Below, in pieces: positions 11,262 through 61,307 of a stretch of DNA of 64,000 bases. The translations under genes were made by a program, and so were the position numbers. The notes beneath the pieces were generated by a model. The model was not told the DNA's origin, searched no databases, and worked only from the letters and a program-made list of their open reading frames with translations. The stretch is from assembly GCA_045805265.1 (NCBI GenBank), contig JBJMLO010000011.1, positions 110,148 through 174,147 of the forward strand. Reading direction: 5' to 3'. Position 1 is the first letter of the stretch, and every line of letters starts with the position of its first letter. This stretch comes from Actinomycetota bacterium. GTDB taxonomy: Bacteria > Actinomycetota > UBA4738 > JACQTL01.

Positions 11262-11292
11262 CTGTTCGATCCTCCGCCGGCGCCGTCCGGGC

Positions 11293-29110: not shown

Positions 29111-31720
<2,610 letters not shown>

Positions 31721-31765
31721 GTGGTCGTGGTTCCTCGTGTCGTCGGTTGCGTTCGGATCGCTCGT

Positions 31766-33981: not shown

Positions 33982-33988
33982 CGGGGCC

Positions 33989-34738: not shown

Positions 34739-36646
34739 CTAGGACGCTTCTCCTTCGTCCACGATCTCGCCCTCGACGACGTCGTCCGGGGACTCGGTGC
34801 CGCCGGTCGAACCGCCGGCCGCGGCCTCACCACCGCCGGCGGGCCCGGCGCCGCCCGCTGCGGCCTGCTGGCCCTGGGACGCCTGCTGGGCCTGCTGCAT
34901 CGCGGGACCCACCTTCTGGAAGGCCTCCATCAGCCGGTCCGCGGCGGCCTTGATGGCCTCGGGGTCGTCGCCCTTGAGGGCCTCCTTCACCTCGTCGTTG
35001 GCCTTGACGAGGTGGTCCTTCTCACCCTGCGGGATCTTGTCCCCGTATTCGCCGACCGCCTGGTCCACCCGGTAGGACAGGTTGTCGGCGTCGTTCCGGG
35101 CCTCGGCGGCCTCGCGCCGCTTGCGGTCCTCGTCCGCGAACTTCTCCGCCTCGACGACCATCCGGTCGATGTCCTCCTTGCCGAGCGCGGTGCCGCCCGT
35201 GATCGTCATGGCCTGCTCCTTGCCGGTGGCGAGGTCCTTTGCCGAGACGTTCACGATGCCGTTGGCGTCGATGTCGAACGCGACCTCGATCTGGGGGACG
35301 CCGCGCGGCGCGGGCGGGATGCCCATCAACTGGAACTGCCCCAGCGAGCGGACGCCCGGCGAGTGAACCGTCTGGGCCTCGCCCTGCAGGATGTGGATCT
35401 CGACCTGCATCTGGTTGTCGTCCGCGGTGGTGAACACCTCGCTCTTGCGCGTGGGGATCGTGGTGTTGCGCTCGATGAGCCGGGTGAAGATGCCGCCCTT
35501 GGTCTCGACGCCGAGCGTCAGCGGCGTGACGTCGAGGAGCAGGATGTCCTTCACGTCGCCCTTCAGCACGCCGGCCTGGATGGCGGCGCCGACGGCGACG
35601 ACCTCGTCCGGGTTCACGCCCTTGTGGGGCTCCTTGCCTCCCGTGAGCTGCTTGACGAGGTCGAGGGTCATCGGCATGCGGGTCGAGCCGCCCACCAGGA
35701 TCACGTGGTCGATCTCGGATGGGTCCTTGCCCCAGTCCTTCACGGCCTGCTGGAACGGGCCCTTGCACCGGTCGATGAGGTCGGACGTCATGCGCTCGAA
35801 CTCGGCGCGGGTGAGCTTGGCCTCCAGGTGCAGCGGCGACATCGAGCCGTCGTCGGACTTCGTCGCGGTGACGAAGGGCAGGTTGATCGTGGTCTCGGTG
35901 ACCTGGGACAGCTCGATCTTGGCCTTCTCCGCGGCCTCCTTCAGGCGCTGCATGGCCATTCGGTCGGCGGAGATGTCGACCCCGTTCGCCTTCTTGAACT
36001 CCGCGACCATCCAGTCGATGACGCGCTGGTCCCAGTCGTCGCCGCCCAGGTGGGTGTCCCCGTGGGTGGACTTGACCTCGAACACGCCCTCCCCGATCTC
36101 GAGCAGGGACACGTCGAAGGTGCCGCCGCCGAGGTCGAACACCAGGACGGTCTGGTCCTTGCCGCCCTTGTCCAGCCCGTAGGCCAGCGCGGCGGCGGTG
36201 GGCTCGTTGATGATCCGGAGCACCTCGAGCCCCGCGATCTGCCCGGCCTCCTTGGTGGCCTGGCGCTGCGAGTCGTCGAAGTACGCCGGGACCGTGACCA
36301 CGGCCTGGGTCACCTTGTCGCCGAGGTAGGACTCGGCGTCACGCTTCAGCTTGCCGAGGATCTGGGCCGAGATCTCCTGCGGCGTCCACTTCTTGCCGTC
36401 GACGTCGAGCGACCAGTCCTTCTCCCCCATGTGACGCTTGATGGACCGCACCGTGCGGTCGGGGTTCGTGATGGCCTGGCGCTTGGCGACCTCGCCGACC
36501 AGGATCTCGCCGTTCTTCGAGTAGCCGACGACGCTGGGGGTGGTCCGGGACCCCTCCGAGTTGGGGACGACCGTCGGCTCCCCACCCTCCAGCACCGCGA
36601 CCACGGAGTTCGTGGTGCCGAGGTCGATTCCCACTGCTCGTGCCAT
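34739..36646 (-). CDS. dnaK: molecular chaperone DnaK (Hsp70)
   Basis: ATG at 36646 ([18 protein letters not shown]...) preceded by GGGAGGAA. The ORF-track start at 36664 (MGRNDHM...) is an upstream in-frame ATG overlapping the RBS and was rejected. Confidence 0.95.
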
Positions 36647-36685
36647 GTGATCGTTCCTCCCCATTCAGGAAACTTGACAATGCCG

Positions 36686-37915: not shown

Positions 37916-39958
37916 GTGGCCGGGACGATCGTGCTCGTGGTGATCTTCGTCGCGGCCGCCGGAATCTTCCTGCGGAGGTCCTGGCTGCTGTACCGGCTCG
38001 TGCGGCTGGGACAGCCGGTGAACCGGTTCGACGACATGCCGAAGCGCGTGGAGTACGAGGCCACCGTCGTCCTCGGCCAGCGGAAGCTGCTGCAGCGGGC
38101 GCTCCCCGGGATCATGCACGCGTTCATCTTCTGGGGGTTCCTGGTCCTGCTGACCACGATCCTCGAGGCCATCGGGCAGATCGTCGACCGGTCCTTCCGC
38201 ATCCCCCTGATCGGCGAGACCTCCGCGCTCAACCTGATCCAGGACCTGTTCGCGCTGCTGGTGCTCGTGGGCCTGGCCATCGCGGTATACATCCGCAAGA
38301 TCCAGCGCCCGGAGCGGTTCAAGGGCTCGCACCTGCGCGAGGCCGACTACATCCTGCTGTGGATCGCCGGGATCATCGTCACGCTGTTCGGCATCAAGTC
38401 CACGGCCGTCGCGGCCGGCGCCGTGCGCAACCCGGCGTGGCTCTTCGTGTCGAACCCGCTGTCGCACGTGTGGGGCGGCCTCGGTACGAGCGCGCTGTCG
38501 ACGCTGAACTACGCGTTCCTGTGGGCGCATATCGCCTTGGTCTTCTCGTTCCTCGTGTACATCCCGTACTCGAAGCACCTGCATATCGTGACCAGCTCGA
38601 TCAACGTGTTCTTCTCGAGCACGAAACCTCGGGGGACGCTCCGGCCGGTGAAGATCGACATGGAGGCGCTCGAGACCTCCGACGAGATGCCGGTGCTCGG
38701 CGCCGCCACGCTCGAGGACCTCACGTGGAAGGAGGCCCTCGACCTCTACACGTGCACCGAGTGCGGGCGGTGCCAGAGCGTCTGCCCCGCGTGGAACACC
38801 GGCAAGCCGCTGTCACCGAAGCTGCTGATCATGAACCTCCGCGACCACCTCTTCGAGCAGGGCCCGAAGATCCTCGCGGCGAAGAAGGCCGGCGAGGAGT
38901 ACGAGAAGGTCCCGCTGAACCCGGGCGTGGTCGAGGACGAGGTCGTGTGGGACTGCGTCACGTGCGGCGCGTGCATGCAGGAATGCCCGGTGAACATCGA
39001 GCACATCGACCACATCGTCGACATGCGGCGGAACCTGGTGATGGCCGAGTCGCGGTTCCCGGCCGAGGCCGGGACGCTCCTGCGGAACATTGAGAACTCG
39101 AGCAACCCGTGGGGGATGCAGCAGGGGACCCGCGGCGACTGGGCGAACGGGCTCGGCTTCGAGGTCCCGACCGTGAACGGCACCGCCCCGGAGTACCTGT
39201 ACTGGGTCGGCTGCGCGGGGTCGTTCGACGAGCGGGCCCGCAAGATCGCCCAGGCCGTCGCCCGGGTGCTGCACGCCGCGGGCGTGCAGTTCGCGATCCT
39301 CGGGCCCGAGGAGCTGTGCAACGGCGACCCCGCCCGGCGCATCGGCAACGAGTACCTGTTCCAGACGCTCGCCGAGCAGAACGTGGCGACGATGAACTCG
39401 AAGGGCGTGCGGAAAGTCGTCGTGAACTGCCCACACTGCTTCAACACCCTCCGCAACGAGTACCCCCAGTACGGCGGCGACTACGAGGTGATCCACCACA
39501 CGCAGCTGTTCGCGCGGCTCGTCGACGAGGGGCGGCTGCGCCCCACCGAGGAGGTCCAGGCCCTGCTCACGTATCACGACCCCTGCTACCTGGGGCGGCA
39601 CAACTCGGAGTACGACGCGCCGCGGAAGGTGCTCGACGCCGTGCCCGGAGTGAAGACGGTGGAGATGCTCCGGCACCGGGAGCGGGCGTTCTGCTGCGGC
39701 GCCGGGGGGGCGAGGATGTGGATGGAGGAGCACCTCGGCAAACGCATCAACAGCGAGCGCACCGAGGAGGCCATCTCCACCGGCGCCGACACCATGGGCG
39801 TGGCGTGCCCGTACTGCCTGATCATGCTCGACGACGGCTCGAAGGCGAAGGGGGGTGAGCTGCAGGTGCTCGACGTCGCCCAGATCGTCGATCGGTCACT
39901 CCGGGGGTCGGGGGAGACGCCCGGCCCGCCCGCGCCATCGAAGACGCCCAGCGGCTGA
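37916..39958 (+). CDS. membrane-anchored (Fe-S)-binding oxidoreductase, heterodisulfide-reductase/GlpC-like with two CCG cysteine-rich domains
   Basis: GTG at 37916 after AAGGAG. About 5 N-terminal TM helices; two 4Fe-4S ferredoxin motifs (CTECGRCQSVCP, CVTCGACMQECP); two CCG domains (VGCAGSF...CPHCF and YHDPCYLGRH...FCCGAGG). Confidence 0.75.
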   Translation: MAGTIVLVVIFVAAAGIFLRRSWLLYRLVRLGQPVNRFDDMPKRVEYEATVVLGQRKLLQRALPGIMHAFIFWGFLVLLTTILEAIGQIVDRSFRIPLIGETSALNLIQDLFALLVLVGLAIAVYIRKIQRPERFKGSHLREADYILLWIAGIIVTLFGIKSTAVAAGAVRNPAWLFVSNPLSHVWGGLGTSALSTLNYAFLWAHIALVFSFLVYIPYSKHLHIVTSSINVFFSSTKPRGTLRPVKIDMEALETSDEMPVLGAATLEDLTWKEALDLYTCTECGRCQSVCPAWNTGKPLSPKLLIMNLRDHLFEQGPKILAAKKAGEEYEKVPLNPGVVEDEVVWDCVTCGACMQECPVNIEHIDHIVDMRRNLVMAESRFPAEAGTLLRNIENSSNPWGMQQGTRGDWANGLGFEVPTVNGTAPEYLYWVGCAGSFDERARKIAQAVARVLHAAGVQFAILGPEELCNGDPARRIGNEYLFQTLAEQNVATMNSKGVRKVVVNCPHCFNTLRNEYPQYGGDYEVIHHTQLFARLVDEGRLRPTEEVQALLTYHDPCYLGRHNSEYDAPRKVLDAVPGVKTVEMLRHRERAFCCGAGGARMWMEEHLGKRINSERTEEAISTGADTMGVACPYCLIMLDDGSKAKGGELQVLDVAQIVDRSLRGSGETPGPPAPSKTPSG

Positions 39959-40356
39959 GTACGGGCTGGTCGCCCTCGGCACTCAAGCCGGAGGCCGGTT
40001 TGGCCGATGAACATCCCCCTAGGTCCATCGGAGGACATCCTTGTGGTTCGGATCGAGGACCAGACGGGTCGAACAGGGGACGGGGCGCCCGCGGTCCCGG
40101 GGTCGAAGCGTGCGAACGGGGAGACGACGATGCTTGCAGGGCCGGGCACCACGGGTGACAATGCCCCGCTACGCCCGGTTCACCGATCCGGCCGCCGGTC
40201 CGGAGCCGCCTCGGACGTTGTCGAGGGATCCAGCGATCCCCCGATCGGCCGAGGGGCCCACCCGGCGGGAACGCTCGCGGGGCGGGTCCCCAGGGGCAGG
40301 GACGCGGCCGTCTCGGCCGCGTCGAAGGACCCGACCCGAGCGCCGTCCGGAGGAGC

Positions 40357-42273
40357 GTGGACCTGGTGAGTGAGTCGTCCGCGATGCGGGCCACCTCGTC
40401 GCTCGTCGACGAGTGCCGCCGCCTGGGCGAACGCCTGCGCCTGGACGCGGTCGGCGTGGCCGCCGGCCCCGAGGGACAGGTCACGTGGTGGGCGGCCCCC
40501 GGCGGCCCGCCGCTCCCGTCCCGGCTCGACGACGTCCTCCTCGGGGCGCTGCCCGGCTGGCTGGTGCTGCCGGTGGGATCCGACGCCATGGTGTTCGCCC
40601 GCCCCACGCCTGACACCCCGCCCCGCGCGGCCGAGGTGCTGCGCGCGGTGGCCCTGTCCCTGGTCGCGCGCGCGAGCGCGCCCCGCCTCGCGCCTGCCCC
40701 CCTCCCGGCGCGAGACGGTGACGGGACCGACCTCGAGGCCCACCCCCTCGAGACCCCAGACGACCGCCCTGTCCTGTGGGAGATCTCCGGGGTCACCGGA
40801 ATCCTGGCGGCCCTGGCACGTGACACGGGGTTCGAGACCGCGTCGCTGTTCGGGCCAGCCGGCTCGGGATGGGAGCTCGTGATGCGGGCGGGACCCACCC
40901 GCCCCTGGCACGCGGTCCTCGATCCCTCGTTGCTCGGTCCGGTCGGTGACGGGATCCGCTACGCCGACGCGAACGACATCCCCGGGGTGGGGCCCCGGCT
41001 CGCCACCCTGGGGTGCGCCAGCCTGGCCGTGCTCCCCTCCGAGGGGGGGACCCGCGTCGTCCTCGATTCCTCCGTTCCGAACCTCGACCTGGGATGGCTG
41101 GACCGGGCGCTGCCCCACCTCGCCATGATCCTCGCGGTGGGCGCCGAGCCCAGGTTCGCCACCGCCGAGCGGAGCGCGAGGGAGCTCGAGATGGTCGAGC
41201 GGTGCGCGGAGGCCACCCGCCGAATCCTGGAGGAACCGGCCAGCACCTCGCTCGAGCTCCTGCGGGAGCTGCGGCAGGCCCTCGAGGCCGACGAGCTCTT
41301 CCATCTGGTCGAGCGGTCCGGCGAGGTCGAGGTGCTGAGCGAGACCAGGTCGGGGTGGCCCCGGAGCATCCCCCGGGAGATCCGCGTCACGATGCGTACG
41401 CTGCCCCTGTACGGCCCGGTCGACGAGGCCACTTCCCGTCAGCTGGGGCTGGTGCTGGGCGCCCTGAGCCCCCATCTCGCCGCGGCATTCAGCCGCGAGA
41501 TCCCGCCGCAGGAGGCTTTGGTGGCGGGGTGGCGACGAGGCCCGGGCCTGTCGCAGGCCGCGATGCGGGCGGTCGCGCAGCTCGCGGCCGGAGCGCGGTC
41601 GGTCATCGAGAGCCGGCAGTCGGCGGTGGACACCATGATGACCAGGGAGCGGACCCGGTGGGCGGACGAGATCCACGACGGGCTGACCCAGTCCGTGACC
41701 ACCGCGGTCCTCGAGCTGGAGGCGATGGAGCGCCTCATCCGGGAGGACCCCCACGCGGCCATCGAGGCCCTCACGGCGTCGAAGTCGGAGATCCGGAAGG
41801 CCCTGTCGAAGCTCCGCGCGATCCTGTTCGATCTCCAACGAGATTCCGCCGAGGACTCAAGGAGCGAGGAACCCCTTACGAAATACGTCAGTGACGTGAT
41901 CAAGCGATGGAGACTTCCGGCGAGGGTGACGGTGACGGGCGACCTCCGCGAGGTGCCCAAGCCGTTGCTCGGCGCGGCCTACGTGGTGATCCGTGAGGGC
42001 CTCGCCAACGCGGCGAAGCACGCGGGCCCAGGGACGGTCAGCGTCGCGGTGAACGCGGTGCCGGACGAGCTCACGGTCGAGGTGGCCGACACCGGGCGGG
42101 GATTCGCCCCCGGCGCCGGGGCCCCGCTGGACCACGGCCCCGGGCACCATTTCGGGCTGGGGATGATGCGCAGGCGCGTGTCCGATGCTGGCGGGACGCT
42201 CGACGTCCAGTCGGCTCCCGGCAAGGGAACGAGACTCGTAGCGCGCCTTCCGGTTCGAGGGAGAAGGCCATGA
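40357..42273 (+). CDS. sensor histidine kinase (HisKA_3/NarL-partner type) with a large N-terminal cytoplasmic sensory region
   Basis: H-box DEIHDGLTQSV (HisKA_3), N-box VIREGLANAAKHA, G-boxes DTGRGF and GLGMM. No obvious TM helices in the about 420-aa N-terminal region. The stop overlaps the RR ATG (ATGA). The start (GTG 40357) is uncertain. Confidence 0.8.
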   Translation: MDLVSESSAMRATSSLVDECRRLGERLRLDAVGVAAGPEGQVTWWAAPGGPPLPSRLDDVLLGALPGWLVLPVGSDAMVFARPTPDTPPRAAEVLRAVALSLVARASAPRLAPAPLPARDGDGTDLEAHPLETPDDRPVLWEISGVTGILAALARDTGFETASLFGPAGSGWELVMRAGPTRPWHAVLDPSLLGPVGDGIRYADANDIPGVGPRLATLGCASLAVLPSEGGTRVVLDSSVPNLDLGWLDRALPHLAMILAVGAEPRFATAERSARELEMVERCAEATRRILEEPASTSLELLRELRQALEADELFHLVERSGEVEVLSETRSGWPRSIPREIRVTMRTLPLYGPVDEATSRQLGLVLGALSPHLAAAFSREIPPQEALVAGWRRGPGLSQAAMRAVAQLAAGARSVIESRQSAVDTMMTRERTRWADEIHDGLTQSVTTAVLELEAMERLIREDPHAAIEALTASKSEIRKALSKLRAILFDLQRDSAEDSRSEEPLTKYVSDVIKRWRLPARVTVTGDLREVPKPLLGAAYVVIREGLANAAKHAGPGTVSVAVNAVPDELTVEVADTGRGFAPGAGAPLDHGPGHHFGLGMMRRRVSDAGGTLDVQSAPGKGTRLVARLPVRGRRP

Positions 42274-42980
42274 AGGTCCTGATCGTCGACGACCACACGC
42301 TGGTTCGCCACGGCATCGCACTGCTCGTGCAGGAGTGCTTCAGCGACGCGGAGGTCCGCGAGGCGGCCAGCGCCGACGACGCCATCGACCAGCTGAAGGA
42401 AGAGACCTTCGACATCGCGCTGCTCGACGTGCGGATGCCCAACCGGGACGGCCTCGAGCTGCTGCGGGAGATGAAGTCGACCTGGCCCGAAACCCCCGTC
42501 CTCATGCTGACCACGTTCGACCATGCGACCTACGTGAAGCAGGCCCTGGCGCACGGCGCCAACGGCTACATGCTCAAGGACTCCTCTCCGGAGGACCTCG
42601 ACCAGGCCATGCGGGTGGCGATGTCGGGCGGCGGGAACGTGCTGTCGGCCCGGGCCATCAGGTCGCTGTTCGAGGGGAACGTCGCGAGCGAGCAGGACAA
42701 GGAGAGGCAGATCCGCCCCGAGAGCCTGACCAAGCGCGAGACCGACATCCTGGCGCTGCTGGCAGAGGGAAAGAGCAACCGGGAGATCGCCCGCTCGCTG
42801 TTTTTGTCGGAGAAGACCGTGAAGGCCCACCTGGCAGCCGTGTTCCGCAAGCTCGGGGTGACGAACCGGACCCAGGCAGCCATGGCCGCGGTGGGCATGG
42901 GTATGGGTCCCGGAGCGAGGCCCCCGATGGTCGAGGACTCCTTCGGGGAGCCGCGCGAGGCCGCGAGCTGGCGGAGCTGA
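42270..42980 (+). CDS. NarL/LuxR-family response regulator
   Basis: Receiver domain (VLIVDDH, LLDVRMP, LMLT) plus C-terminal LuxR helix-turn-helix (LTKRETDILALLAEGKSNREIARSLFLSEKTVKAHL). Confidence 0.9.
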   Translation: MKVLIVDDHTLVRHGIALLVQECFSDAEVREAASADDAIDQLKEETFDIALLDVRMPNRDGLELLREMKSTWPETPVLMLTTFDHATYVKQALAHGANGYMLKDSSPEDLDQAMRVAMSGGGNVLSARAIRSLFEGNVASEQDKERQIRPESLTKRETDILALLAEGKSNREIARSLFLSEKTVKAHLAAVFRKLGVTNRTQAAMAAVGMGMGPGARPPMVEDSFGEPREAASWRS

Positions 42981-43006
42981 TCCGCCCTGGTGGAGTGGCT
43001 CCCCGC

Positions 43007-45661
43007 GTGAGCGACTCGCCGCCCGTCAAGCGGGCCATCCTCTCCGGCCTCACAGGGCTCTTCCACGGCGACCAGGCCGCCGACGGGATGCCCGAGCCGG
43101 CCGACGACGCCATGATGGATCCACCCGCGGGACCCGTGGACGACCGCGCGGACGACGACTCGGTGGAGGTCACGATGCCGGCCCCGGAACCGGAACGCCA
43201 GCAACCGGCCACTCCGCTCGTCGTGGCGCGCGACGAGTTCGCCGGGCTGGCCTCCCGGGATCCGGCGGAGCGCCGGCGGGCGCTCGATGTGATCGCCGCG
43301 CGGGGACTCTCCGACCGTACCGTTCCGGCCGTGGCGGGACTCCTGCAGGATCCCGAGCGAGCGATCCGCGTTGCCGCCCTCGAGGTCCTCGCCGCCCGCC
43401 CCGACGCGGTCGGCGCATCGGTGGTGCGGCAGGCCTTGCGGGACCCCTCGGACGAGGTCCGGGCCGCCGCCGTGCGCCTGGCGGCCGCCCGCCCGTCCCG
43501 CGATCTCCCGGACGTGTTCTCGCTGATCGGCGAGCGGCAGTGGCCCACCGCCCAACTGGCCGCGCTGCAGGCGCTGCCACACGCGGTGTCCGAGTTCGGC
43601 ATCGGGCCCGAGGAGCTGGACGCCATGCTCGACGCCCTGGCCGCCATGGAGTCCGATCCCGGCCCCACGGAGCACGGCGGCCTGGCGGCGATGGCCGCCT
43701 CGGTGGGACGGGCTCGGCTGGCGGCGGCCCTCGAGGTTCCCGGAACGAGACGCCTCGGCGCCGCCCGGCTGGTGCTGCAGGACGACTCGCCGGCTTCGCT
43801 CCGCGAGCTGGCCGGGCACGCGGACGATCCCGATCCGGACGTCGCCCGGTTGGGCCGCGTCGCCGCCGACCGCCTGGCCGTGGCGGGTATCGACGAGTCG
43901 CTCGAGGAACATGTGACGAAGGGGCCGGACGACTCGCCGACCGCGAGGGAGGCGTTCGAGGCCGAGCTCGGGCCGCGCGGCGAGATGGTCGCTGGCCTGG
44001 CCCGCGCCCTGGGCGACCCGGACGAGGCCGTCCGGGCCCGGGGCCGGGAGGCGCTCCGCGCCATCGACCGGGCCACCCTCGTGGACTGGATGCTCGCCGC
44101 GCTGGACTCGAACGACCCGGACCAGGTCCTGCTGGCAGCGCAGGTGGCGGAGGCGGCCGGCGTGACCGAGGCAGCCCCGATCCTGCTGGCACGCGGCGCG
44201 GCGGCGACGGCCGACGCCCGGGGGCCGTTCACCCGGGCACTCCTCTCGCTCGGGGTGCCGCCGGAGGAGCTCGTGGCCATGGCGACCCGGCTCGACGGCC
44301 GGTACCGGCAGGAGGCGGTTCGCATGCTGTGGCAGGTCGGGGGGCGTTCCATCCTGCCCGCCCTCCAGCCGCTTTTGGAGGACGCGTCGGCGACGGTCCG
44401 GGTGGCGGCCCTGGAGGTCTTCGGGCATTCGGGCGACGCGCAGACGATCGAGGTCGCCCAGCGCGTGCTGGAGCGGGACTCCTCGCCGGTGGTCCGGGCC
44501 ACCGCGATCTCCGTGATCGGCCGCGCCGGGCTGGACCAGCGCTCGGCCTCGCTGGCCCAGGCCCTTGCCGATCCGGACCCCGACGTCCGGGCCACGGCCG
44601 TCGAGGTCCTGCCGGCGGGCATGGGCCGCCACGCCACGGACCTCCTTCTGGAAGCGCTGTCGGATCACGACGAGCGGGTGTGGCAGGCCGCCATCCGGCA
44701 CTTGGCGTCCGTGCCCGACCGCGACCGTTCGATCGTCTGGCAGGCCATCGAACGGTGCCCGGCCACGCGCCGCGAGCACCTCGTGGCCGCGCTCGAGCGT
44801 TCGAACGGGGAACGGCTGGCATTGCTGGCCCTGGATCACCTGACGTCGCCGGACGCGGCCGAGCGGACACTCGCCATCGTGCTGGCCGGTCGGGCCGGAA
44901 CCCCCGACTGCGTCCGGGGGATCGTCGCGGCGCTGCAGGACCCGGCGCCCACCGTGCGCCGGACCGCGGCCTCCGCCCTGCACTCCATCCACAGCGCGGA
45001 ATCGATCGAGGGCCTCTCGCGGGCCCTGTCCGACCCCGACGTCGAGGTCCGTGTGGAAACCGTGCGGGCGCTGTCGGTGATCGACGACGACACCGTGCTG
45101 GACCCCCTGATCACTGCGCTGAAGGACCCGGAGATGCGGGTCCGCGACGTCGCGGCCGAAGCGCTCGTACGGTGGCGCTCCCCCGCCGTGGCCCGGCGGC
45201 TGGCCGTAGCGCTGACCAACCCGTCGCTCCGCCGAGCCGCGGGAGAGGTGCTGGGGCGGATGGGGACCTCGGCCGTCGACCCGCTGGTCGAAATCCTCAT
45301 GGAGGACGATCCGGAGCTGGCGGCGACCGTCGGCGCGCTGCTGGACAGCCTGGTCGGAGCCGACGCGTTCCTGTCGCGCCTCGGCGCCATGGATCCCACG
45401 GAGCGCCTGCGCGCCGTGGAGGCCCTCGGTGCCATGGGCGGCGAGCGTGGGATCGACGGCCTGATCCGGGCGCTGTCGGACCCGGTGGAGTCCATCCGCG
45501 TGCGGGCGGTCACCCTCCTCGGTGACGCCGACGACGACCGGGCCTTCGAAGCCGTCAAACAGGCCTTCCTGAGCGATCCCGTGCAGGAGGTCGTCTCGGC
45601 GGCGGAGGAGGCGCTCCGCCGGCTGCAGGGCGGCCTCGAGGCCCCCGACGGCCAGGAATAG
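43007..45661 (+). CDS. HEAT-repeat (PBS-lyase-type HEAT-like) protein, about 15 tandem repeats
   Basis: GTG at 43007 (alternative GTG at 42995), 27 bp after the RR stop. Repeats of the form L.DPD..VR..A...L recur (LQDPERAIRVAALEVLAA, LRDPSDEVRAAAVRLAAA, LADPDPDVRATAVEVLPA, LSDPDVEVRVETVRALSV, LKDPEMRVRDVAAEALVR and others). The ORF-track entry 42335-45661 fuses this frame with antisense of the RR and was rejected. Confidence 0.7.
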   Translation: MSDSPPVKRAILSGLTGLFHGDQAADGMPEPADDAMMDPPAGPVDDRADDDSVEVTMPAPEPERQQPATPLVVARDEFAGLASRDPAERRRALDVIAARGLSDRTVPAVAGLLQDPERAIRVAALEVLAARPDAVGASVVRQALRDPSDEVRAAAVRLAAARPSRDLPDVFSLIGERQWPTAQLAALQALPHAVSEFGIGPEELDAMLDALAAMESDPGPTEHGGLAAMAASVGRARLAAALEVPGTRRLGAARLVLQDDSPASLRELAGHADDPDPDVARLGRVAADRLAVAGIDESLEEHVTKGPDDSPTAREAFEAELGPRGEMVAGLARALGDPDEAVRARGREALRAIDRATLVDWMLAALDSNDPDQVLLAAQVAEAAGVTEAAPILLARGAAATADARGPFTRALLSLGVPPEELVAMATRLDGRYRQEAVRMLWQVGGRSILPALQPLLEDASATVRVAALEVFGHSGDAQTIEVAQRVLERDSSPVVRATAISVIGRAGLDQRSASLAQALADPDPDVRATAVEVLPAGMGRHATDLLLEALSDHDERVWQAAIRHLASVPDRDRSIVWQAIERCPATRREHLVAALERSNGERLALLALDHLTSPDAAERTLAIVLAGRAGTPDCVRGIVAALQDPAPTVRRTAASALHSIHSAESIEGLSRALSDPDVEVRVETVRALSVIDDDTVLDPLITALKDPEMRVRDVAAEALVRWRSPAVARRLAVALTNPSLRRAAGEVLGRMGTSAVDPLVEILMEDDPELAATVGALLDSLVGADAFLSRLGAMDPTERLRAVEALGAMGGERGIDGLIRALSDPVESIRVRAVTLLGDADDDRAFEAVKQAFLSDPVQEVVSAAEEALRRLQGGLEAPDGQE

Positions 45662-45799
45662 CGCCGGTTGCGACCGCAGATGTCGGGAATGCCGACCGAT
45701 CGACTCGGTCGAAAGACCTAGGCCGCTTTCCCTAGACATCGGCCGATCGTGCCCCGAATGGTGGATGGCCGGATCGGCCGGTGGGCCTAGGCTCCTACC

Positions 45800-47809
45800 A
45801 TGCAACCCCGGCTGCGGGCCAGGGGGGCGTCCACACGCGTCGGCTCGTTGCGGAACTCGATCCTGCTGGCGACCGAGGAGTCCTACCCCTCGGTGGCGAG
45901 CGACCATGCCGACTGGTGCCAGGCCCTGGTGAACGGATTGCCCGAGCTCGACTTCGTGTCGTGGTCGCTGTCGAGCGCTCCTCGGGCGGAGGCGTCGTAC
46001 CGCCTCCCGCCGAACGTGATCCGGTGGATCGACGTGCCCTGGGGCGCGGGGAGGCCGGTCGAGGCGGGCGACGGCCCGACCGCCGATGTCGATCGTCCCC
46101 CTTCCACCCTGGACGCCCGGGACGGCGAGCGCGAGTTCGTCCCGGCGCTCCGCGGGTTGCTCGAGGCGACGGTGGATCCCGCCGGTCCCGGCCCCCGGAT
46201 GGCCGAGGCGCTGCTGCGCCTTCGCGCCGTGCTGCTCCGATGGGGCGCCGGTGAGACGTGGGAGGCTCCGGCCGCGGTGCTCGCCCTCCGCGACCACCTG
46301 CTGGCGCGGGCCGAGGTCCCGGGGCCCGGAGGCGCCGCGGGCGGCGCGCCGCCGGTGGGAGACGCCCCCTCGCATGCGCCGACCGAGAGCGACGCCGTCG
46401 AGGCCGCGGCGTGGCTGTCACGGGTGCTCGCCGGCCTGGCCGCGGAGATTCCTCCCACCGACGTGGTGCACGTGACCGCTTCCGGGTTCTGCGCGCTGCC
46501 CGGCGTCCTGGCAAAGGCCCGATGGGGGACGCCGCTGCTGCTCACCGAGCTGGCCAGCCCCCTGCGCGAGCCGCGCCTCCGCCTGGCCCCCGCGGCCCCG
46601 CTCCACCTGCGGCGGTTCGCGGCCGAGGTCCAGGGGGCAGTGGCGCGGACGGTCTACCGGCTCGCGGACCGGGTAACGGTGGTCTCGCCGCACATCGAAC
46701 CGCTCGAGCGCGTGCGCGGGACGCGGGTGGAGGTCGTCGCGGGCGGGGTCGACGAGGGGGTGTTCCGTCCGGAGCGCGTCACGCGGTCGGATCGTCCGAC
46801 GGTCGTCCAGGTGTCGCGGATCGACCCCCGGTCGGACCTGTTCACGCTGCTGCGGGTCGCCGATCTGGTGCGCCGGGAGATCCCGGACGTGCTGTTCGTC
46901 CACCACGGCGACATCGTCGACGGCGCCTACTGGGAGCGGGTGCTGCACCTGCACCGCGACCTTGCGCTCGGGGACACGGTTCGCTTCGAGGGCCCGGCCT
47001 CCGACGTTCCCCGGGCGCTGGCCGCGGCCGACCTGGTGCTCGGCACGTCGGTGGAGGAGGCCTTCCCGTGGATCGTCGTGGGCGCGCTGCTGTGCGAGCG
47101 TCCCGCGGTGGCGGCCGATCCCGGCGGGGTGCGGAACGTCGTCGAGGGGGCGGGAATCACGGCGCCGCCGGGGGACGCCGCCGCGCTCGCCGAGGCCGTG
47201 GCCGCGACGCTGCGGATCTCGCCGGAGCAGCGGGCCGCGATCGGCCGGGCCGGCCGGGACCTGGCGCTGTCCAGGTTCCGCCTGAGCAGGTTCCTGGACG
47301 ACTCCCGTGAGATCTACCGACGGCTGGTCGGCGGGCCGGATACCGCTCCCCCGCCGGCCCGTGCCGCCGCGGAGGCGGAGGCCGGGGCGGTGCCGCCCGC
47401 AGCCGGCGAGCGGGCGCCTGGCGGAGCGGAGCCGCGCACAGTGCCTCGACGGATGGTGCCCGCAGGTGTGGCCGCGGAGATCGGCGTCGCGCAGCCCGAC
47501 CCGGGCGCAGGTCGGACGTCTGGTCCCCGAGACGAACTGAGGCATCCCGACCCCCTCGTGCGGATCGGGGCGCTCTCCCGCCTCGAGTCGGCCGAGGACG
47601 TCGACCAGGCAGCGGCGGGCCTCTCCGACTCCTATCCCCAGGTCCGGCGGGAGGCCGTGCGGGCGATCGGCAGGCTGGACGGGCCGCTCGCCGGCCGATG
47701 GCTCGCCGACGCCGTGGCGCACGACCCCTCGGCGGAGGTCCGGGAGGAGGCTGTGGCGGCGATCGCCGAGCTGCTGGCGAGACCCCCCGCGGACGAGCGG
47801 CCGGCCTGA
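45800..47809 (+). CDS. family 4 glycosyltransferase with an about 190-aa N-terminal domain of unknown function and three C-terminal HEAT-like repeats
   Basis: GT4 core (VVHVTASGFCALPG...; Rossmann EX7E-like region RFEGPASDVPRALAAADLVLGTSVEEAFPWIVVGALLCERPAVAAD). C-terminal repeats LRHPDPLVRIGALSRLES, LSDSYPQVRREAVRAIGR, VAHDPSAEVREEAVAAIAE match the repeat type of the upstream gene. Confidence 0.7.
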   Translation: MQPRLRARGASTRVGSLRNSILLATEESYPSVASDHADWCQALVNGLPELDFVSWSLSSAPRAEASYRLPPNVIRWIDVPWGAGRPVEAGDGPTADVDRPPSTLDARDGEREFVPALRGLLEATVDPAGPGPRMAEALLRLRAVLLRWGAGETWEAPAAVLALRDHLLARAEVPGPGGAAGGAPPVGDAPSHAPTESDAVEAAAWLSRVLAGLAAEIPPTDVVHVTASGFCALPGVLAKARWGTPLLLTELASPLREPRLRLAPAAPLHLRRFAAEVQGAVARTVYRLADRVTVVSPHIEPLERVRGTRVEVVAGGVDEGVFRPERVTRSDRPTVVQVSRIDPRSDLFTLLRVADLVRREIPDVLFVHHGDIVDGAYWERVLHLHRDLALGDTVRFEGPASDVPRALAAADLVLGTSVEEAFPWIVVGALLCERPAVAADPGGVRNVVEGAGITAPPGDAAALAEAVAATLRISPEQRAAIGRAGRDLALSRFRLSRFLDDSREIYRRLVGGPDTAPPPARAAAEAEAGAVPPAAGERAPGGAEPRTVPRRMVPAGVAAEIGVAQPDPGAGRTSGPRDELRHPDPLVRIGALSRLESAEDVDQAAAGLSDSYPQVRREAVRAIGRLDGPLAGRWLADAVAHDPSAEVREEAVAAIAELLARPPADERPA

Positions 47810-47909
47810 CCGCCACGGCCGCGTGACGCTGGCCCGCGAGGGACCGAACCCCGATCATGCTCCGGGAGCCCCGTCGGCCGTGCGCCGTTCATCCCGTAAG
47901 GTGGGGAAC

Positions 47910-49245
47910 CATGCGCGTCTCGGTCATCGGCACCGGTCACGTCGGGCTGACCACCGCCGCATGTCTCGCCCACATCGGGCACGACGTGCTCGGCGTCGAC
48001 GACGACGTCGAGAAGGCCGGGGCCATCGGGCGCGGCGAGGTCCCGTTCCACGAGCCCGGCCTGGCCGAGCTGGTCCGCGAGGGCCTCGATTCGGGCCGCC
48101 TCCGAATGTCGACCGACCCTTCGGCGGCCGCTCCGCACGGGGAGGTCGTGTTCATCTGCGTCGGCACCCCCACAGGGGAATCCGGCGCTGCGGACCTCGA
48201 CCAGGTCGAACGTGTCGCCCGGATCGTCGCCCGGAGCCTGGAGGGCTACGCCGTGATCGCGGAGAAGTCCACGGTGCCGGTGGAGACCGGCGAATGGATC
48301 CGCCGCACCGTCGAGCGCGAGGCCCGGCCGGGGACCGAGTTCGACGTGGCCTCCAACCCCGAGTTCCTGCGCGAGGGGCGCGCCATCAACGACACACTGG
48401 AGCCCGACCGCATCGTCGTCGGGAGCGACTCGCCCCGGGCGATCGAACGCCTCCGCGAGGTGTACCGCCCGATCCTGGACCGGAGCGGCTGCCCCTTCGT
48501 GGTGACCGACCTCGCGACGGCGGAGCTCATCAAGCACGCTTCGAACGCGTTCCTGGCCACGAAGATCTCGTTCATCAATTCCATCGCGGACCTGTGCGAG
48601 CGGGCGGGGGCCGACGTGGAGACCGTCGCCGAGGCCATGGGCCTCGACCAGCGCATCGGGCCCGCCTTCCTCCGGGCGGGGATCGGCTACGGCGGCGAGT
48701 GCTTCCCGAAGGACGTGCGCGCGTTCCGCCACCGTGCCGACGAGCTCGGCGTCGACTTCGCGCTGCTGGCCCAGGTGGAGCGGGTGAACGACGCGCGGAT
48801 CGACGCGTTCGTCGAGAAGGTTCGGGGGGCACTGTCGGGCCTCGAGGGGAAGCGCGTGGCGCTGTGGGGCCTGTCGTTCAAGCCCGAGACCGACGACCTC
48901 CGCAACGCCCCGGCCCTGGAGGTGGCACGGCGGCTGGTCGCCGGCGGCGCTCGCGTCACGGCCTACGACCCGGTGGCGATGCCCGCCGCGAAGCCGCTCG
49001 TGCCGGACGTCGAGCTCGCGCCGGACCCCTACGACGCCGTGCGGGGAGCGGACTGCCTGGCGGTATGCACGGAGTGGAGCGTCTTCGCCACGGCCGACCT
49101 CGAACGGCTCCGCGCCGAGATGGCCCACCCCCTCGTCGTCGACGGCCGGAACGTCTTCGACCCGGCCGCGATGGCCGCCGCCGGCTTCACCTACGCGAGC
49201 GTCGGCCGCCCGACCGTGGCGCCGGGCCCGATCGCGACTCCGTAG
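47910..49245 (+). CDS. ugd: UDP-glucose 6-dehydrogenase family (UDP-glucose/GDP-mannose dehydrogenase)
   Basis: ATG at 47910. N-terminal NAD Rossmann fold MRVSVIGTGHVGLTTAACLA; catalytic Cys in GYGGECFPKDV. Confidence 0.85.
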
Positions 49246-50402: not shown

Positions 50403-50564
50403 GGGAACGGCAACGCTAGCAGGTCGGGATTCCCGCGCCCCGGGGCATGTTCCGAGGCTCGTCGTGAGGGCGTTTCCGCGGCCCGGGACACGAGCCATCC
50501 GGGCGCGGCCCCGACCGCGGCCCTTGCTAGAATGCGCGGCGCGACCGGCCTCCGGGCCGCTCTG

Positions 50565-50635
50565 GCGGATGTGGTTCAATGGCAGAACGCAAGCTTCCCA
50601 AGCTTGAGACGGGGGTTCGATTCCCCTCATCCGCT
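50565..50635 (+). tRNA. tRNA-Gly (anticodon CCC)
   Basis: Cloverleaf read by hand: acceptor GCGGATG/CATCCGC, D-arm GTTC-AATGGCA-GAAC, anticodon arm CAAGC-TTCCCAA-GCTTG (anticodon CCC), T-arm GGGGG-TTCGATT-CCCCT, discriminator U. CCA not encoded. Confidence 0.85.
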
Positions 50636-50761
50636 CCCTCCCCTCACAGGAGTGTTCGCGCGGGGACCGAGCGTTCGAGGCTCGGATGCGACGAGGAGTT
50701 GGGGCAGGACTTCCGTCCGAACCAATGGCATCGCTTCGTCGACGATCGAAACTGACCCAAC

Positions 50762-51589
50762 CTAGCCCCTCGCGTCGCCCGGGCGATCGGTCGTTCCGCC
50801 CAGATACATCGGCGCGGTGGGGCACAGGTCGTTCAGCGGGCAGTCCTCGCAGCGGGGCCGGCCCGGCTTGCAGATCTCGCGACCCAGGCGGATCAGGCCA
50901 ACGTGCATCGAGATCCGCAACCGTGGCGGCACGAGCTTCCGCAGGATCTCGTGCGCGGGGCCGGCGCCCGCGCCCGGCGGGATCCAGCCGAGCCGGCCGG
51001 CCACCCGGTGGACGTGGGTGTCGACCGGCAGGGCCGGCCGCTCCAGCGAGAAGGCCAGCACGCAGGCCGCCGTCTTCGGGCCGACGCCGGGAAGGGATTC
51101 CAGGTAGGCGACCACCTCCTCGTCGGAGGCCTCGCGCATCCACGCCAGGTCCAGCGAGCCGTCACGGTCGCGGATCTCGCGCAGGATCGCGAGGAGCCGT
51201 GGCGCCTTGATCCGGGACAGGCCGCCGGGGCGGATGGCCTGGGCGACGTCCGCGACCTCGGCGTCGGCCAGCGACTCCCACGTCGGGAACCGATCCCGCA
51301 GCGCCGCGAACGCCCGGTCGCGGTTCACGTCGCTGGTGTTCTGCGACAGGACCGTGAGCACCAGCTCTTCGACCGGGTCGCGCTTGACGGGCGGGTCGAG
51401 CGGCCCGAAACGCCGGGCCAGCCTCCGGTGGACCTGCCTGACCACCGCGGCATCGACGGAGGGCGAGCCGGCCACGCCATCGACTGCACGACCGGCGGGA
51501 CGCGCAACGAACCGCGCGGGTCGCGCGGCGGTCCGGCGGGCGGCACGGCGCTTCCCGGGCGGACCGGGCGCCGTCTTCGCGGCGCTCAC
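50762..51589 (-). CDS. nth: endonuclease III (HhH-GPD family DNA glycosylase, 4Fe-4S)
   Basis: HhH-GPD (LPGVGPKTAACVLAF) and C-terminal Cys cluster CKPGRPRCEDCPLNDLC. GTG at 51589 overlaps the dnaB TGA (GTGA); the start is uncertain. Confidence 0.75.
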   Translation of the reverse strand: MSAAKTAPGPPGKRRAARRTAARPARFVARPAGRAVDGVAGSPSVDAAVVRQVHRRLARRFGPLDPPVKRDPVEELVLTVLSQNTSDVNRDRAFAALRDRFPTWESLADAEVADVAQAIRPGGLSRIKAPRLLAILREIRDRDGSLDLAWMREASDEEVVAYLESLPGVGPKTAACVLAFSLERPALPVDTHVHRVAGRLGWIPPGAGAGPAHEILRKLVPPRLRISMHVGLIRLGREICKPGRPRCEDCPLNDLCPTAPMYLGGTTDRPGDARG

Positions 51590-53652: not shown

Positions 53653-55629
53653 ATGTCCCGGCCGGTCCTGCGGCCCCCGCCCGGCGCCTTGGGCGGGGTC
53701 GGTGACGGGAGCGGTCATCGGCCCGCGGGGGATCGTGCTTCCTTGACGGGTCCCCGCCGCACGGGTGGAATGGCGGGCATGGCCGGCTCCGGGACGTCCC
53801 AACCGGCCCCGCGCCCGGCCGATGCCACGACGACCGCTCCCGACCGGGGCGCGCCGCCGCCATCGACCGGCGACGGGGCCGAGCCGGCCGGTCCCCGCCG
53901 GCACGCGGCCGCCTCATGGGCCGGCCGCACGGCCGGCTGGCTGCGCTCGACGACCCGGGGACAGGCGACAGTGGCGTTCCTCGCCTACCTCGTGGCCTCG
54001 ATCGGCACGTTCGGCGCACCGATCCTGCGTCACCCCGGAACGACGGTCGTCGGGTGGGGCACCGACCCGAGCTTCTACGCGTGGGCCATGGCCTGGTTCC
54101 CGCACGCAATCGGGCACGGCCTGAACCCGCTCGTCACCCACGAGGTGTGGGCGCCGGTGGGGTTCAACCTCACCCACGCCACGGCGGTCCCCGGGCCCGC
54201 GCTGGCCCTGTCGCCCGTCACGCTGCTGTTCGGGCCGGTGGTCGCGTACAACGTGATGTCGCTGCTGGCTCCCGTGCTGGCGGCGTGGGCCGCGTACCTG
54301 CTGTGCCGGGAGGTCACCGGGAGGTTCTGGGCGTCGCTCGTCGGCGGCTACCTGTTCGGGTTCTCCGTGTACGTGACCGCGCAGATGCTGGGCCACCCGA
54401 ACCTGTCGCTGGTGTTCCCGGTGCCGCTGTGCGCGCTGGTGGTGCTCCGGCTCGTTCGGGGCGAGATCTCGACCAGGAAAGCCGTGGTCGGCCTCGCGGC
54501 GGCGCTCACCGGGGAGTTCCTCATCTCACTGGAGGTGTTCACGACCCTCGCGGTGGTCGGCATCCTGGCCCTGGTGGCAGCCGTGCTCGTGATGCCCCGG
54601 CTGAGGCCGGCGCTGTACGGCGCGGGGATGGCGGTGGCACTCGCCTACGGGATCACGGCGGTGGTGGTGTCGCCGTTGGTGTGGTCGTTCTTCTCCTCGT
54701 CGTACTACGCGCCCGTGTACGACTTCTACCCGGCGCTGTACGCCTCGGACCTCGTGAACTTCCTGGTGCCCACGTCGCTCACGCACGTCGGCGCGGGCAC
54801 CTTCTTCCCGGTGAGCACGATGTTCACCGGGGACATCTCCGAGCAGTCCGCGTACTTCGGGCTGCCGCTCCTCGCCATGGCCGGCGGGTTCGCCGTCGAG
54901 TTCTGGCGCCGGGGGTGGGCGAGATGGCTCCTCGGGCTGACGGCGGTGGTCTGCGTTCTGTCGCTCGGACCCAAGCTCCACATCGGCGGCCAGGAGACCA
55001 TGACCATGCCCTGGAAGCTCGCGCTCTCGGTGCCGCTGCTGAAGTACGTCCTGCCCGGCCGGCTCATGCTGTACGCGTGGCTGGGCGTCGCAGTGATGGC
55101 CGCCGCGTGGCTGGCGGCCCGGCCGGGCTGGGGCCGGTGGGCCCTGGCGGGGCTCGCCGTGATCGTGCTGTTCCCGAACATCACCGGGCCGTTCTGGCAC
55201 AACCCCGTCCACGAGCCCGCTTTCTTCTCCGGCGGCGAGTACCGCCGCTTCCTCCCGCGGGACGCGAACGTCCTGGTCGTGCCCTACGGCGCGAGCGGAG
55301 AGAGCACGCTGTGGCAGGCCGAGTCGGGATTCTGGTTCCGGATGCCGGGCGGGAACGTCGCCACCAGGCCGCCCTCGGATTTCGGGAACTGGCCGATCAT
55401 GGAGGCCCTGTACTCGGGCCAGCCCATCGCGAACTCCGGCGTGGAGCTGAAGCGGTTCCTGGGCGCGAACGCGGTGCGCGACGTCGTGGTCGTACACGGC
55501 ACCCCGGGGGAATGGAAGGCGCTGTTCGCCCCGATCGGCCGGCCGCGCTCGATCGGGGGGATCGACCTGTACACGGTCCCCGGTTCGATCCTCCGGGCGT
55601 ACGCGAATGCGCCCCGCCCCGGACCGTAG
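53653..55629 (+). CDS. polytopic integral membrane protein, putative GT-C-type glycosyltransferase (unknown specificity)
   Basis: At least 10 hydrophobic helices after an about 100-aa Pro/Gly-rich N-terminus and a C-terminal soluble domain; the true start may be at the internal Met (MAGMAG) near 53770. Family assignment is inference only. Confidence 0.5.
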   Translation: MSRPVLRPPPGALGGVGDGSGHRPAGDRASLTGPRRTGGMAGMAGSGTSQPAPRPADATTTAPDRGAPPPSTGDGAEPAGPRRHAAASWAGRTAGWLRSTTRGQATVAFLAYLVASIGTFGAPILRHPGTTVVGWGTDPSFYAWAMAWFPHAIGHGLNPLVTHEVWAPVGFNLTHATAVPGPALALSPVTLLFGPVVAYNVMSLLAPVLAAWAAYLLCREVTGRFWASLVGGYLFGFSVYVTAQMLGHPNLSLVFPVPLCALVVLRLVRGEISTRKAVVGLAAALTGEFLISLEVFTTLAVVGILALVAAVLVMPRLRPALYGAGMAVALAYGITAVVVSPLVWSFFSSSYYAPVYDFYPALYASDLVNFLVPTSLTHVGAGTFFPVSTMFTGDISEQSAYFGLPLLAMAGGFAVEFWRRGWARWLLGLTAVVCVLSLGPKLHIGGQETMTMPWKLALSVPLLKYVLPGRLMLYAWLGVAVMAAAWLAARPGWGRWALAGLAVIVLFPNITGPFWHNPVHEPAFFSGGEYRRFLPRDANVLVVPYGASGESTLWQAESGFWFRMPGGNVATRPPSDFGNWPIMEALYSGQPIANSGVELKRFLGANAVRDVVVVHGTPGEWKALFAPIGRPRSIGGIDLYTVPGSILRAYANAPRPGP

Positions 55630-59899: not shown

Positions 59900-59920
59900 G
59901 CTTCCGCCCGGCCGTGCGAG

Positions 59921-61258: not shown

Positions 61259-61307
61259 AGGCGACCCGGGCGGCGAGCGTCGGCGTGAGGAGGACCGAGC
61301 GGTGGCC

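Follow-up and report, generated by a model that had tools for sequence, protein, structure and literature searches.

A PelF-like glycosyltransferase with a fused mini-HEAT tail may join a Pel-like exopolysaccharide cassette to a HEAT/two-component gene set in uncultured Actinomycetota

Five consecutive genes of an uncultured actinomycetotal bacterium raise the question of which pathway would bring together a two-component system, a giant HEAT-repeat protein, and a HEAT-tagged glycosyltransferase. We analyzed a 64-kb stretch (the window) of one uncultured metagenome-assembled genome (MAG; contig JBJMLO010000011.1; GC content, 72%). Third-codon-position GC and open reading frame (ORF) calls placed all five genes on the plus strand, encoding a soluble sensor histidine kinase (HK; 40357..42273), a NarL/LuxR-type response regulator (RR; 42270..42980), an 884-amino-acid (aa) protein made of HEAT repeats (giant HEAT; 43007..45661), a 669-aa glycosyltransferase (GT)-HEAT fusion protein (45800..47809), and a UDP-glucose 6-dehydrogenase (UGD; 47911..49245), in agreement with the order and coordinates of the preliminary description of this DNA. 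The spacing on this single strand is operon-like. The ATG of the RR gene overlaps the TGA of the kinase gene (ATGA), and the gaps that follow are 26, 138, and ~100 nt. The start codon of the giant HEAT gene is a GTG 27 nt beyond the final base of the RR stop codon, preceded by GGAG at a distance of ~10 nt; both this distance and the overlap were read directly and correspond to those described before. In our best reading, PelF became fused to a mini-HEAT domain, and a Pel-like cassette was thereby grafted onto a HEAT/two-component module. We see an even chance that the locus is such a composite, with the window copy having lost pelG and being weakened or re-purposed.

The identity of the GT carries much of this argument. 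The preliminary description had matched the locus to no described pathway and had treated the ~190-aa N-terminal domain of the GT as unknown, and neither view holds. The N-terminal domain matched DUF3492 (PF11997) at 69.8 bits (cutoff, 23.3) and also Glyco_transf_4, and the C-terminal domain matched Glycos_transf_1 (PF00534) at 64.3 bits (cutoff, 26.4; aa 323-486). The combination of DUF3492, the hallmark of PelF, with Glycos_transf_1 is the architecture of PelF. This PelF-like GT4 portion corresponds to aa 1-515 (45800..47344), and a helical insert is present in its DUF3492 domain. The window GT is 100% identical to an NCBI protein labelled 'MAG: DUF3492 domain-containing protein [Actinomycetota bacterium]', and homologues with the DUF3492-GT1-HEAT_2 architecture were found at 45-79% identity. 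The best NCBIfam model for the window GT was PelF (NF038011; 61.9 bits, aa 308-452). This score is below the cutoff of 100, which two relatives, L008 (145.4 bits) and L003 (115.2 bits), exceeded. MshA, a housekeeping identity considered beforehand, was rejected (TIGR03449; 31.6 bits against a cutoff of 462.5), and the scores for the other named GT4 models of NCBIfam were also far below their cutoffs. The window GT is thus a divergent member of the DUF3492/PelF family. Since it contains DUF3492 and has cutoff-passing relatives linked to PelG, the locus is of the Pel type rather than part of an unmatched pathway. The pathway class is already known, as pelF-pelG cores have been reported in Gram-positive bacteria including Actinobacteria (PMC7112168, PMC7112194). 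What appears to be new is that a fused mini-HEAT adaptor wires this class to a HEAT/two-component module.

Relatives of the locus were collected by a search with the kinase sensor region, gene-context look-up, and a scan of metagenome contigs, and all loci were tabulated by tblastn. The array was tightly spaced on the same strand in every related genome sampled, so that its co-occurrence outside the window genome, on which the earlier proposal depended, is established. Four groups were distinguished. Group A, consisting of the window, L001 (= L015 = L016 = L022), L002, and L004, has a kinase sensor identity to the window of at least 78% and encodes PelF with the HEAT tail and UGD; L004, whose kinase lies off the contig, was placed here by its GT. 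Group B (L003 = L007 = L019; L005 = L020 = L021; L006), with a kinase sensor identity of 68%, encodes PelF with the tail, PelG, and UGD. In group C (L024 and L025; 43-47%), L025 has PelF with the tail and neither PelG nor UGD, and L024 shows the order HK-RR-giant HEAT-PelF on a contig that ends inside the GT, before the position of the tail. Group D (L013, L014, L027, L030, L031, and L032; 37-43%) has a stand-alone mini-HEAT protein of ~100 aa with three repeats; no GT, PelG, UGD, or trpD was found in these loci. The mini-HEAT is therefore the C-terminal tail of PelF in the window, L001-L007, and L025, and a free protein in the six group D loci (for example, L014:15126-15419 and L013 ~15772-16083). 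The public gene call of 248 aa in L013 is in the wrong frame and covers the mini-HEAT ORF together with a tRNA-Gly gene.

These distributions are not those of a single five-gene module, as first proposed, given that HK-RR-giant HEAT-mini-HEAT occurs without GT and UGD in six more distant loci and that PelF with the tail occurs without UGD in L025. They point instead to two layers. The first would be a conserved set of HK with three GAF-like domains, NarL-type RR, giant HEAT, and mini-HEAT, always located between the dnaK operon and dnaB. The second would be a synthase-dependent exopolysaccharide cassette of PelF, PelG, and usually UGD. The fusion that connects them may have been gained in groups A-C or lost in group D. 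When 185,579 species representatives of a genome collection were scanned with patterns derived from only the HEAT tail part of the GT alignment, four loci were returned, and the tail family was present only in L007, L008, and the tail of L009. The fourth, L010 (Fimbriimonadia), contains a plain GT4 and an MFS-HEAT fusion and was set aside as unrelated. The locus type is thus rare and restricted to a clade of uncultured soil and groundwater Actinomycetota.

We next consider the HEAT repeats themselves. The giant HEAT matched HEAT_2 (PF13646) in eight stretches (215 bits, E = 1e-64). A hidden Markov model (HMM) built from its own repeats resolved 8 canonical and ~8 degenerate repeats of 31 aa each, close to the ~15 counted initially. 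Besides these ~16 HEAT_2-type repeats no domain was found by Pfam, and the acidic N-terminus is probably disordered. Wherever a locus extends far enough, the RR gene is followed by that for an orthologue (809-1363 aa), also with HEAT matches only. In the GT, an Ala/Pro-rich low-complexity linker (aa 516-575, 47345..47524) separates the PelF-like portion from the tail. The linker is poorly conserved (34-53% identity; dN/dS of 0.48-0.60), was modelled by AlphaFold with pLDDT of <50, and extends to ~170 aa in the GTs of group B. The tail (aa 576-669, 47525..47809) matched HEAT_2 at aa 579-656 with 34.1 bits (cutoff, 27.7), and the repeat HMM found three repeats in it. Six helices were predicted by AlphaFold with pLDDT of >80, and many columns were invariant among seven GTs, which places the tail among the better-conserved parts of the protein. 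The three C-terminal repeats noticed in the preliminary description are thus real and strongly conserved.

That description had also proposed that the tail is of the same HEAT type as the giant HEAT and that the matching repeats allow the two proteins to co-assemble. The Pfam type is indeed the same. However, the similarity between the tail and the repeats of the giant HEAT is generic, with identity of no more than 37%. A profile was built from the GT tails and scored on tails, mini-HEAT proteins, and all windows of the giant HEATs. Independent tails scored 118 bits (L025) and 111 bits (L008), the L009 tail 90.5 bits, four stand-alone mini-HEATs 58-62 bits, those of L013 and L027 38-39 bits, and the best window of any giant HEAT 20-39 bits. 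Because the profile separates the classes in this manner, the tail and the mini-HEAT appear to form a distinct subfamily of their own. In every lineage, the gene directly after the giant HEAT encodes a mini-HEAT of this subfamily, either free or as the C-terminus of PelF. This invariable gene order is stronger evidence for a partnership than the resemblance of the repeats.

The tail was also found outside PelF. In another Actinomycetota MAG, L009:6389-10270 encodes a 1293-aa protein that consists of a cellulose-synthase-like GT2, PMT_2, and a C-terminal HEAT tail 47% identical to that of the window GT. Since this tail belongs to the same subfamily, the tag has become attached to a second, unrelated class of synthase. 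In a HMMER search, 36,330 representative proteins matched the tail profile at E <= 1e-3. The best 150 of these were mostly giant multi-repeat HEAT proteins and included no new fusion partners; the single-stretch matches among them belonged to the GT-HEAT family alone, with P0118 being a truncated copy. No report linking HEAT repeats to PelF or to polysaccharide synthases was found in the literature.

The window copy differs from its sister lineages in the genes that surround PelF. In the relatives L003, L005, L006, and L008 and on the contig of P0005, the GT is followed by PelG, a protein of 522-534 aa with ~10 transmembrane (TM) segments. The pelG start overlaps the GT stop codon in L003, L005, and L008, and in L006 and on the P0005 contig pelG comes directly after the GT gene. 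A match to the Pfam PelG family was obtained with the L005 copy (43.1 bits; cutoff, 29), and the other copies were 35-79% identical to it. On L008, a groundwater MAG contig, PelG is followed by a multi-TM protein of at least 560 aa (L008:5051-6739) that matched no family and whose ORF is cut by the end of the contig. Two PelG queries were run by tblastn, and pelG was found neither in the 64-kb window nor in L001, L002, and L004, in which UGD directly follows the GT. A word-index search for PelG returned five close relatives only, none of which is attributable to the window genome. Also, no GGDEF-like, tetratricopeptide repeat (TPR), or deacetylase proteins resembling PelD, PelE, or PelA were found among the Pfam-scanned window genes, which comprised those for purine biosynthesis, the dnaK operon, the Fe-S protein, trpD, nth, dnaB, ribosomal proteins, and GT-C-like proteins; in the left part of the window, all but a few ORFs were covered. 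The window lineage has thus lost pelG from the locus. The Gram-positive systems characterized to date depend on pelG for making Pel (PMC12345266, PMC7112168).

Residues that are conserved in PelG-linked relatives have changed in the window GT. The GTs were aligned with each other and with BshA (PDB 2jjm). L008, P0006, and P0007 keep the complete GT4 set, namely the N-domain His (TEH), the phosphate-binding Lys (SRIDPLKD), and both Glu residues of the EX7E motif. In the window GT, TEH is replaced by TEL, PLKD by PRSD, and the second Glu of EX7E by Gly (EEAFPWIVVG). The SRI-motif Arg and the first Glu of EX7E are retained, and an Arg adjoins the position of the lost Lys. According to mutagenesis of AceA and PelF, the second Glu of EX7E is reportedly replaceable in some GT4 enzymes. 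Over 431 ungapped columns of the catalytic region, identity to the outgroups L008 and L025 was 39-42% in the window group versus 50-54% in group B, a clear sign of rate acceleration in the window-group GT. Between the window and L001, dN/dS was 0.41 for the whole GT (N-domain, 0.51; C-domain, 0.27; tail, 0.42) and 0.15-0.26 for the neighboring genes, including 0.17 for UGD. Between the pelG-bearing L003 and L005, the corresponding values were 0.30 for the whole GT and 0.19 for both the C-domain and the tail. Of the genes in the array, the window GT is thus the one under least constraint, and it has ceased to resemble a canonical PelF. It is nevertheless under purifying selection and thus not a pseudogene, and it is full length in all four pelG-less genomes.

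One explanation of this pattern is that the PelF-like domain of the window no longer transfers sugars and has become a nucleotide-sugar-binding or structural partner of the HEAT/two-component module. The His, the Lys, and the second Glu would then have been lost together from an ORF that stays intact and constrained, along with pelG, and the stand-alone mini-HEAT of PelF-less relatives implies that the HEAT proteins have a function independent of glycosyl transfer. We nevertheless consider such a pseudo-enzyme quite improbable. Many enzymes have a dN/dS as low as that of the catalytic C-domain, loss of the second Glu is reportedly tolerated by some GT4 enzymes, and the adjacent UGD, which fits ongoing sugar chemistry, has been kept. 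Most likely, the Pel-like enzyme of the window has been weakened or re-purposed, and it is probably not a canonical Pel polymerase.

All three UGD domains (PF03721, PF00984, and PF03720) were present, and the protein matched TIGR03026 at 443 bits (cutoff, 189.8). TuaD was the best specific model (471 bits, below the equivalog cutoff of 700), and UDP-ManNAc dehydrogenase models scored 148-168 bits. The ORF opens at 47857 and ends at 49245. Because orthologues are 442-446 aa long and the Pfam match begins at aa 19 of the ORF, 47911 is the likely start, giving a protein of 444 aa. UGD does follow the GT, as noted previously. It stands after PelF or PelF-PelG in groups A and B and is absent in L025 and group D. 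UGD would supply UDP-glucuronate, and its link to the GT is not obligatory, as seen in L025.

A further gene with a suggestive distribution is found at 53653..55629 on the plus strand, encoding a DUF6311-like membrane protein with ~10 TM segments and a C-terminal soluble domain. It is located between dnaB and rplI in the PelF-bearing lineages and is absent in the PelF-less L013 and L014, where dnaB directly precedes rplI. The label was taken from precomputed Pfam matches (PF19830) on orthologues; the window protein itself had no match in the current Pfam and NCBIfam copies. This protein may be an envelope glycan enzyme or exporter and thus a possible accessory, and its membership in the module is uncertain.

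Together with UGD, this gene is relevant to the possibility that the window encodes a fully active exopolysaccharide pathway. The polymer would perhaps contain glucuronic acid derived from UGD, a distant pelG paralogue or the DUF6311-like protein 6 kb downstream would export it, and the residue changes would reflect an altered donor or acceptor. Such a pathway would be consistent with the purifying selection on the GT (C-domain dN/dS of 0.27-0.29), its full length in four pelG-less genomes, the retained first Glu and Arg, the adjacent and strongly constrained UGD (dN/dS of 0.17), and the presence of the DUF6311-like gene in PelF-bearing lineages but not in the PelF-less L013 and L014. However, no pelG homologue occurs within 64 kb, in spite of the requirement for pelG in characterized Gram-positive systems (PMC12345266, PMC7112168); three residues conserved in PelG-linked relatives were lost together; the GT evolves faster than in group B; its score is below the PelF family cutoff; and UGD does not always accompany the GT (L025). 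We therefore regard full activity as doubtful and prefer the grafted, weakened or re-purposed Pel-like cassette.

Several observations weigh against the graft as a whole. In every locus that is long enough, one side is formed by the clpB-hspR-dnaJ-grpE-dnaK operon, followed by an Fe-S/CCG protein, HK, RR, and giant HEAT, and the other side by nth-dnaB-rplI-rpsR-ssb-rpsF. The neighborhood of ~20 kb, including the housekeeping flanks (dnaK operon, trpD, nth, dnaB, and rpsF-ssb-rpsR-rplI), is thus syntenic throughout, so that co-occurrence alone proves little, and the gene order could have been inherited without being selected for. With the tail profile, two of the six stand-alone mini-HEATs (38-39 bits) scored no better than the best window of a giant HEAT. 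Neither a giant HEAT nor two-component genes were found within 10 kb of the GT2-tail fusion of L009, and on the short L008 contig, the upstream neighbor of PelF with the tail is a 5'-3' exonuclease instead of a giant HEAT. The correlation between residue loss and pelG loss is imperfect; in P0005 the Lys and the second Glu are missing although pelG is present, and L025 keeps EX7E without pelG. Furthermore, the roles of these residues were drawn from general knowledge of GT4 enzymes, no PelF structure being present in the PDB, and the AlphaFold model of the GT, based on a seven-sequence alignment, reached a pLDDT of 54, too poor for active-site geometry. Finally, the 64 kb inspected are part of a genome in which pelG or genes resembling pelD, pelE, and pelA may be located elsewhere.

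Some of these points would also fit the absence of any functional module, in which case the HEAT/two-component and GT/UGD genes are mere neighbors and the tail is a generic interaction appendage unrelated to the giant HEAT. The order of the flanking housekeeping genes is equally conserved, PelF, PelG, and UGD come and go independently of HK-RR-HEAT, the GT tails of L008 and L009 lack an adjoining giant HEAT, and HEAT_2 is extremely common, as the 36,330 matching representatives indicate. By contrast, the giant HEAT is immediately succeeded in every lineage by a fused or free mini-HEAT belonging to the tail subfamily, the genes are closely spaced on one strand, and the tail is well conserved, with invariant columns and a dN/dS of 0.19 in group B. 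Mere proximity is accordingly distinctly unlikely in our judgment. Co-assembly of the two proteins, first deduced from matching repeats, is weakly founded in that form, and gene order offers the better evidence for a partnership.

The upstream part of the array would provide the signal input to the grafted cassette. HisKA_3 (PF07730; 46.8 bits) and HATPase_c (PF02518; 58.2 bits) were located at aa 431-634 of the kinase, and the phospho-acceptor H440 was invariant among 37 homologues. No hydrophobic TM segments were estimated for HK, giant HEAT, or GT, in line with the soluble kinase described before. The preceding 420 residues, left unassigned at that time, also matched no Pfam family, GAF models included. 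In the AlphaFold model, however, this region folds into three GAF-like alpha/beta domains (~aa 15-106, 146-262, and 298-400). W172, W184, P209-G210, and G219-C220 of the second domain were invariant among the 37 homologues and may form a ligand-binding pocket. The regulator contains a receiver domain (Response_reg, PF00072; 101 bits), with the acceptor D53 in LLDVRMP, and a GerE helix-turn-helix (PF00196; 82 bits). HK and RR thus have the features of a HisKA_3/NarL-type two-component system, and neither reached the cutoff of any named NCBIfam equivalog (NarL, MadR, MctR, and others). In all related loci that reach far enough, the kinase gene is preceded by that for the Fe-S/CCG protein, an HdrD/GlpC-like membrane oxidoreductase (37916..39958, plus strand) with five TM segments, a 4Fe-4S domain, and two CCG domains. 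Its membership in the module is uncertain, and its location beside a GAF-type kinase hints at redox sensing.

A promoter-like element and a leader of ~190 nt precede the kinase gene (40120..40356, plus strand). The element, TTGCAG-N17/18-GACAAT or TAGAAT, was conserved in eight loci (window, L001, L002, L003, L005, L006, L023, and L025). The invariant block at the 5' end of the leader, GCTACGCCCGGTTCACCG, was predicted to pair with the region of the ribosome-binding site and start codon, and an inner hairpin showed compensatory changes. The RNAalifold consensus contained 38 pairs, including the helix between the 5' end and the start-codon region; 91% of the leader cells were paired versus 35-44% in slid controls, and the covariation score was 0.216 versus 0.118 in shuffles (0/500). 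No Rfam family matched. We consider the leader a candidate cis-regulatory RNA. A consensus promoter and terminator scan of 39.8-50.8 kb found nothing, a scan that is uninformative at a GC content of 72%.

From these features, the following mechanism may be envisaged. With its GAF-like domains, the kinase would detect a ligand in the cytoplasm or a redox signal, and it would then phosphorylate the RR, which would control transcription of the array. Cytoplasmic PelF would be held, and possibly gated, by docking of its mini-HEAT tail on the giant HEAT solenoid, the HEAT proteins standing in for the PelE hub and the PelD receptor of cyclic di-GMP (c-di-GMP). In the sister lineages of group B, PelG would export the polymer. 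The docking of HEAT on HEAT, the control by RR, the identity of the polymer, and a loss or change of GT activity are what we infer from domain content, gene order, and substitution patterns. In a bolder formulation, HK-RR-giant HEAT-mini-HEAT is an undescribed signaling and scaffold module, and the mini-HEAT is a portable docking tag, found on a PelF-type GT4 and on GT2-PMT_2, that places glycan synthesis under post-translational control by a HEAT solenoid in place of c-di-GMP and PelD-PelE, the window PelF being non-canonical and possibly non-catalytic. In this full form the proposal is unlikely.

Pel is a widespread biofilm polysaccharide, and a PelDEFG synthase complex under c-di-GMP control is the current model of its production. 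In the present clade, a PelF-PelG core occurs, and neither PelD nor PelE nor PelA was found in its vicinity. Should the HEAT proteins recruit or gate PelF, a signal would here be connected to synthase-dependent polysaccharide production in a different way, and the fusion would hint at what the otherwise anonymous HEAT/two-component module does. The natural series of pelG present, pelG lost, and PelF absent could also show the fate of a synthase after exporter loss. The immediate impact is modest because the organisms are uncultured, the clade is small, and the evidence is at the level of sequence.

The remaining part of the window supplies the chromosomal context. A tRNA-Gly(CCC) gene lies at 50564-50638, between trpD and nth, and in L013, a homologous tRNA gene is located ~100 nt downstream of the mini-HEAT ORF. 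From these two positions, the tRNA gene marks the right-hand edge of the variable segment that contains PelF, PelG, UGD, and trpD. The left part of the window (4746-13823 and 29111-36664) is housekeeping context, with purine biosynthesis genes (a purL-type AIRS-domain gene, amidotransferase, SAICAR synthetase, adenylosuccinate lyase, AIR carboxylase, GAR synthetase, and adenylosuccinate synthetase). In the same part, dnaK was confirmed by Pfam, and the adjoining grpE, dnaJ, hspR, and clpB were assigned only by synteny with L013 and L014. The dnaB gene at 51586-53445 carries a mini-intein (619 aa). The intein in dnaB of L003 is larger and includes a LAGLIDADG endonuclease (869 aa), and the dnaB products of L006, L013, and L014 are intein-free (449-451 aa). 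At 59150-62642, a second NarL-type RR gene, a GT87-family gene, and a gene for a PIG-V-like (GT-C) mannosyltransferase-like protein form a separate envelope-glycan group.

Compared with known systems, the locus most resembles that for Pel, which comprises pelABCDEFG in Pseudomonas aeruginosa and pelDEA(DA)FG in Gram-positive bacteria. In the canonical complex, PelD, PelE, PelF, and PelG form a membrane synthase, with PelE as a protein hub and PelD in a gating role (PMC13254593, PMC12345266), and pelD, pelE, pelADA, pelF, and pelG are all required in Gram-positive bacteria (PMC13254593, PMC12345266, PMC7112168). The present locus likewise encodes a cytoplasmic GT4 with a DUF3492 N-domain, followed by a PelG-type gene in sister lineages, and an alpha-helical-repeat protein is encoded alongside, which could organize the complex by analogy with the PelE hub. 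Its logic appears synthase-dependent, in that the scan of locus genes showed neither Wzx/Wzy nor an ABC transporter. Unlike Pel loci, the window has no PelD (GAF plus degenerate GGDEF c-di-GMP receptor), PelE, or PelA deacetylase/hydrolase in the genes that the scan covered. A HEAT tail of three repeats is fused to PelF, the genes for a two-component system and a giant soluble HEAT protein lie upstream, and a UDP-glucose dehydrogenase rather than an epimerase is adjacent. The window copy is further set apart by the missing pelG, the sub-cutoff PelF score, and the three replaced residues.

In outline, the two-component pair may be like DosS/DosT-DosR (DevS-DevR) of actinobacteria, with a soluble kinase, GAF-like in its AlphaFold model, and a NarL-type partner. 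However, three GAF-like domains rather than two are present here, none of which is seen by Pfam GAF models; the W172/W184/C220 residue set and the genomic partners differ; and no evidence for heme binding was obtained. The giant HEAT shares the 31-residue HEAT_2/PBS-lyase repeat (L..DPD..VR..A...L) with CpcE/CpcF, NblB, and Escherichia coli YibA (NblB, 63 bits; CpcE, 31 bits). Unlike these proteins, it is far larger (884-1363 aa), has no phycobiliprotein context, scores far below their cutoffs, and is paired with a dedicated mini-HEAT and a two-component system. BcsA, finally, carries PilZ at its C-terminus instead of a HEAT tail, for which no second-messenger link is known, and offers a functional analogy only: in both proteins, a synthase bears a C-terminal non-catalytic module that could couple its activity to a cytoplasmic regulator.

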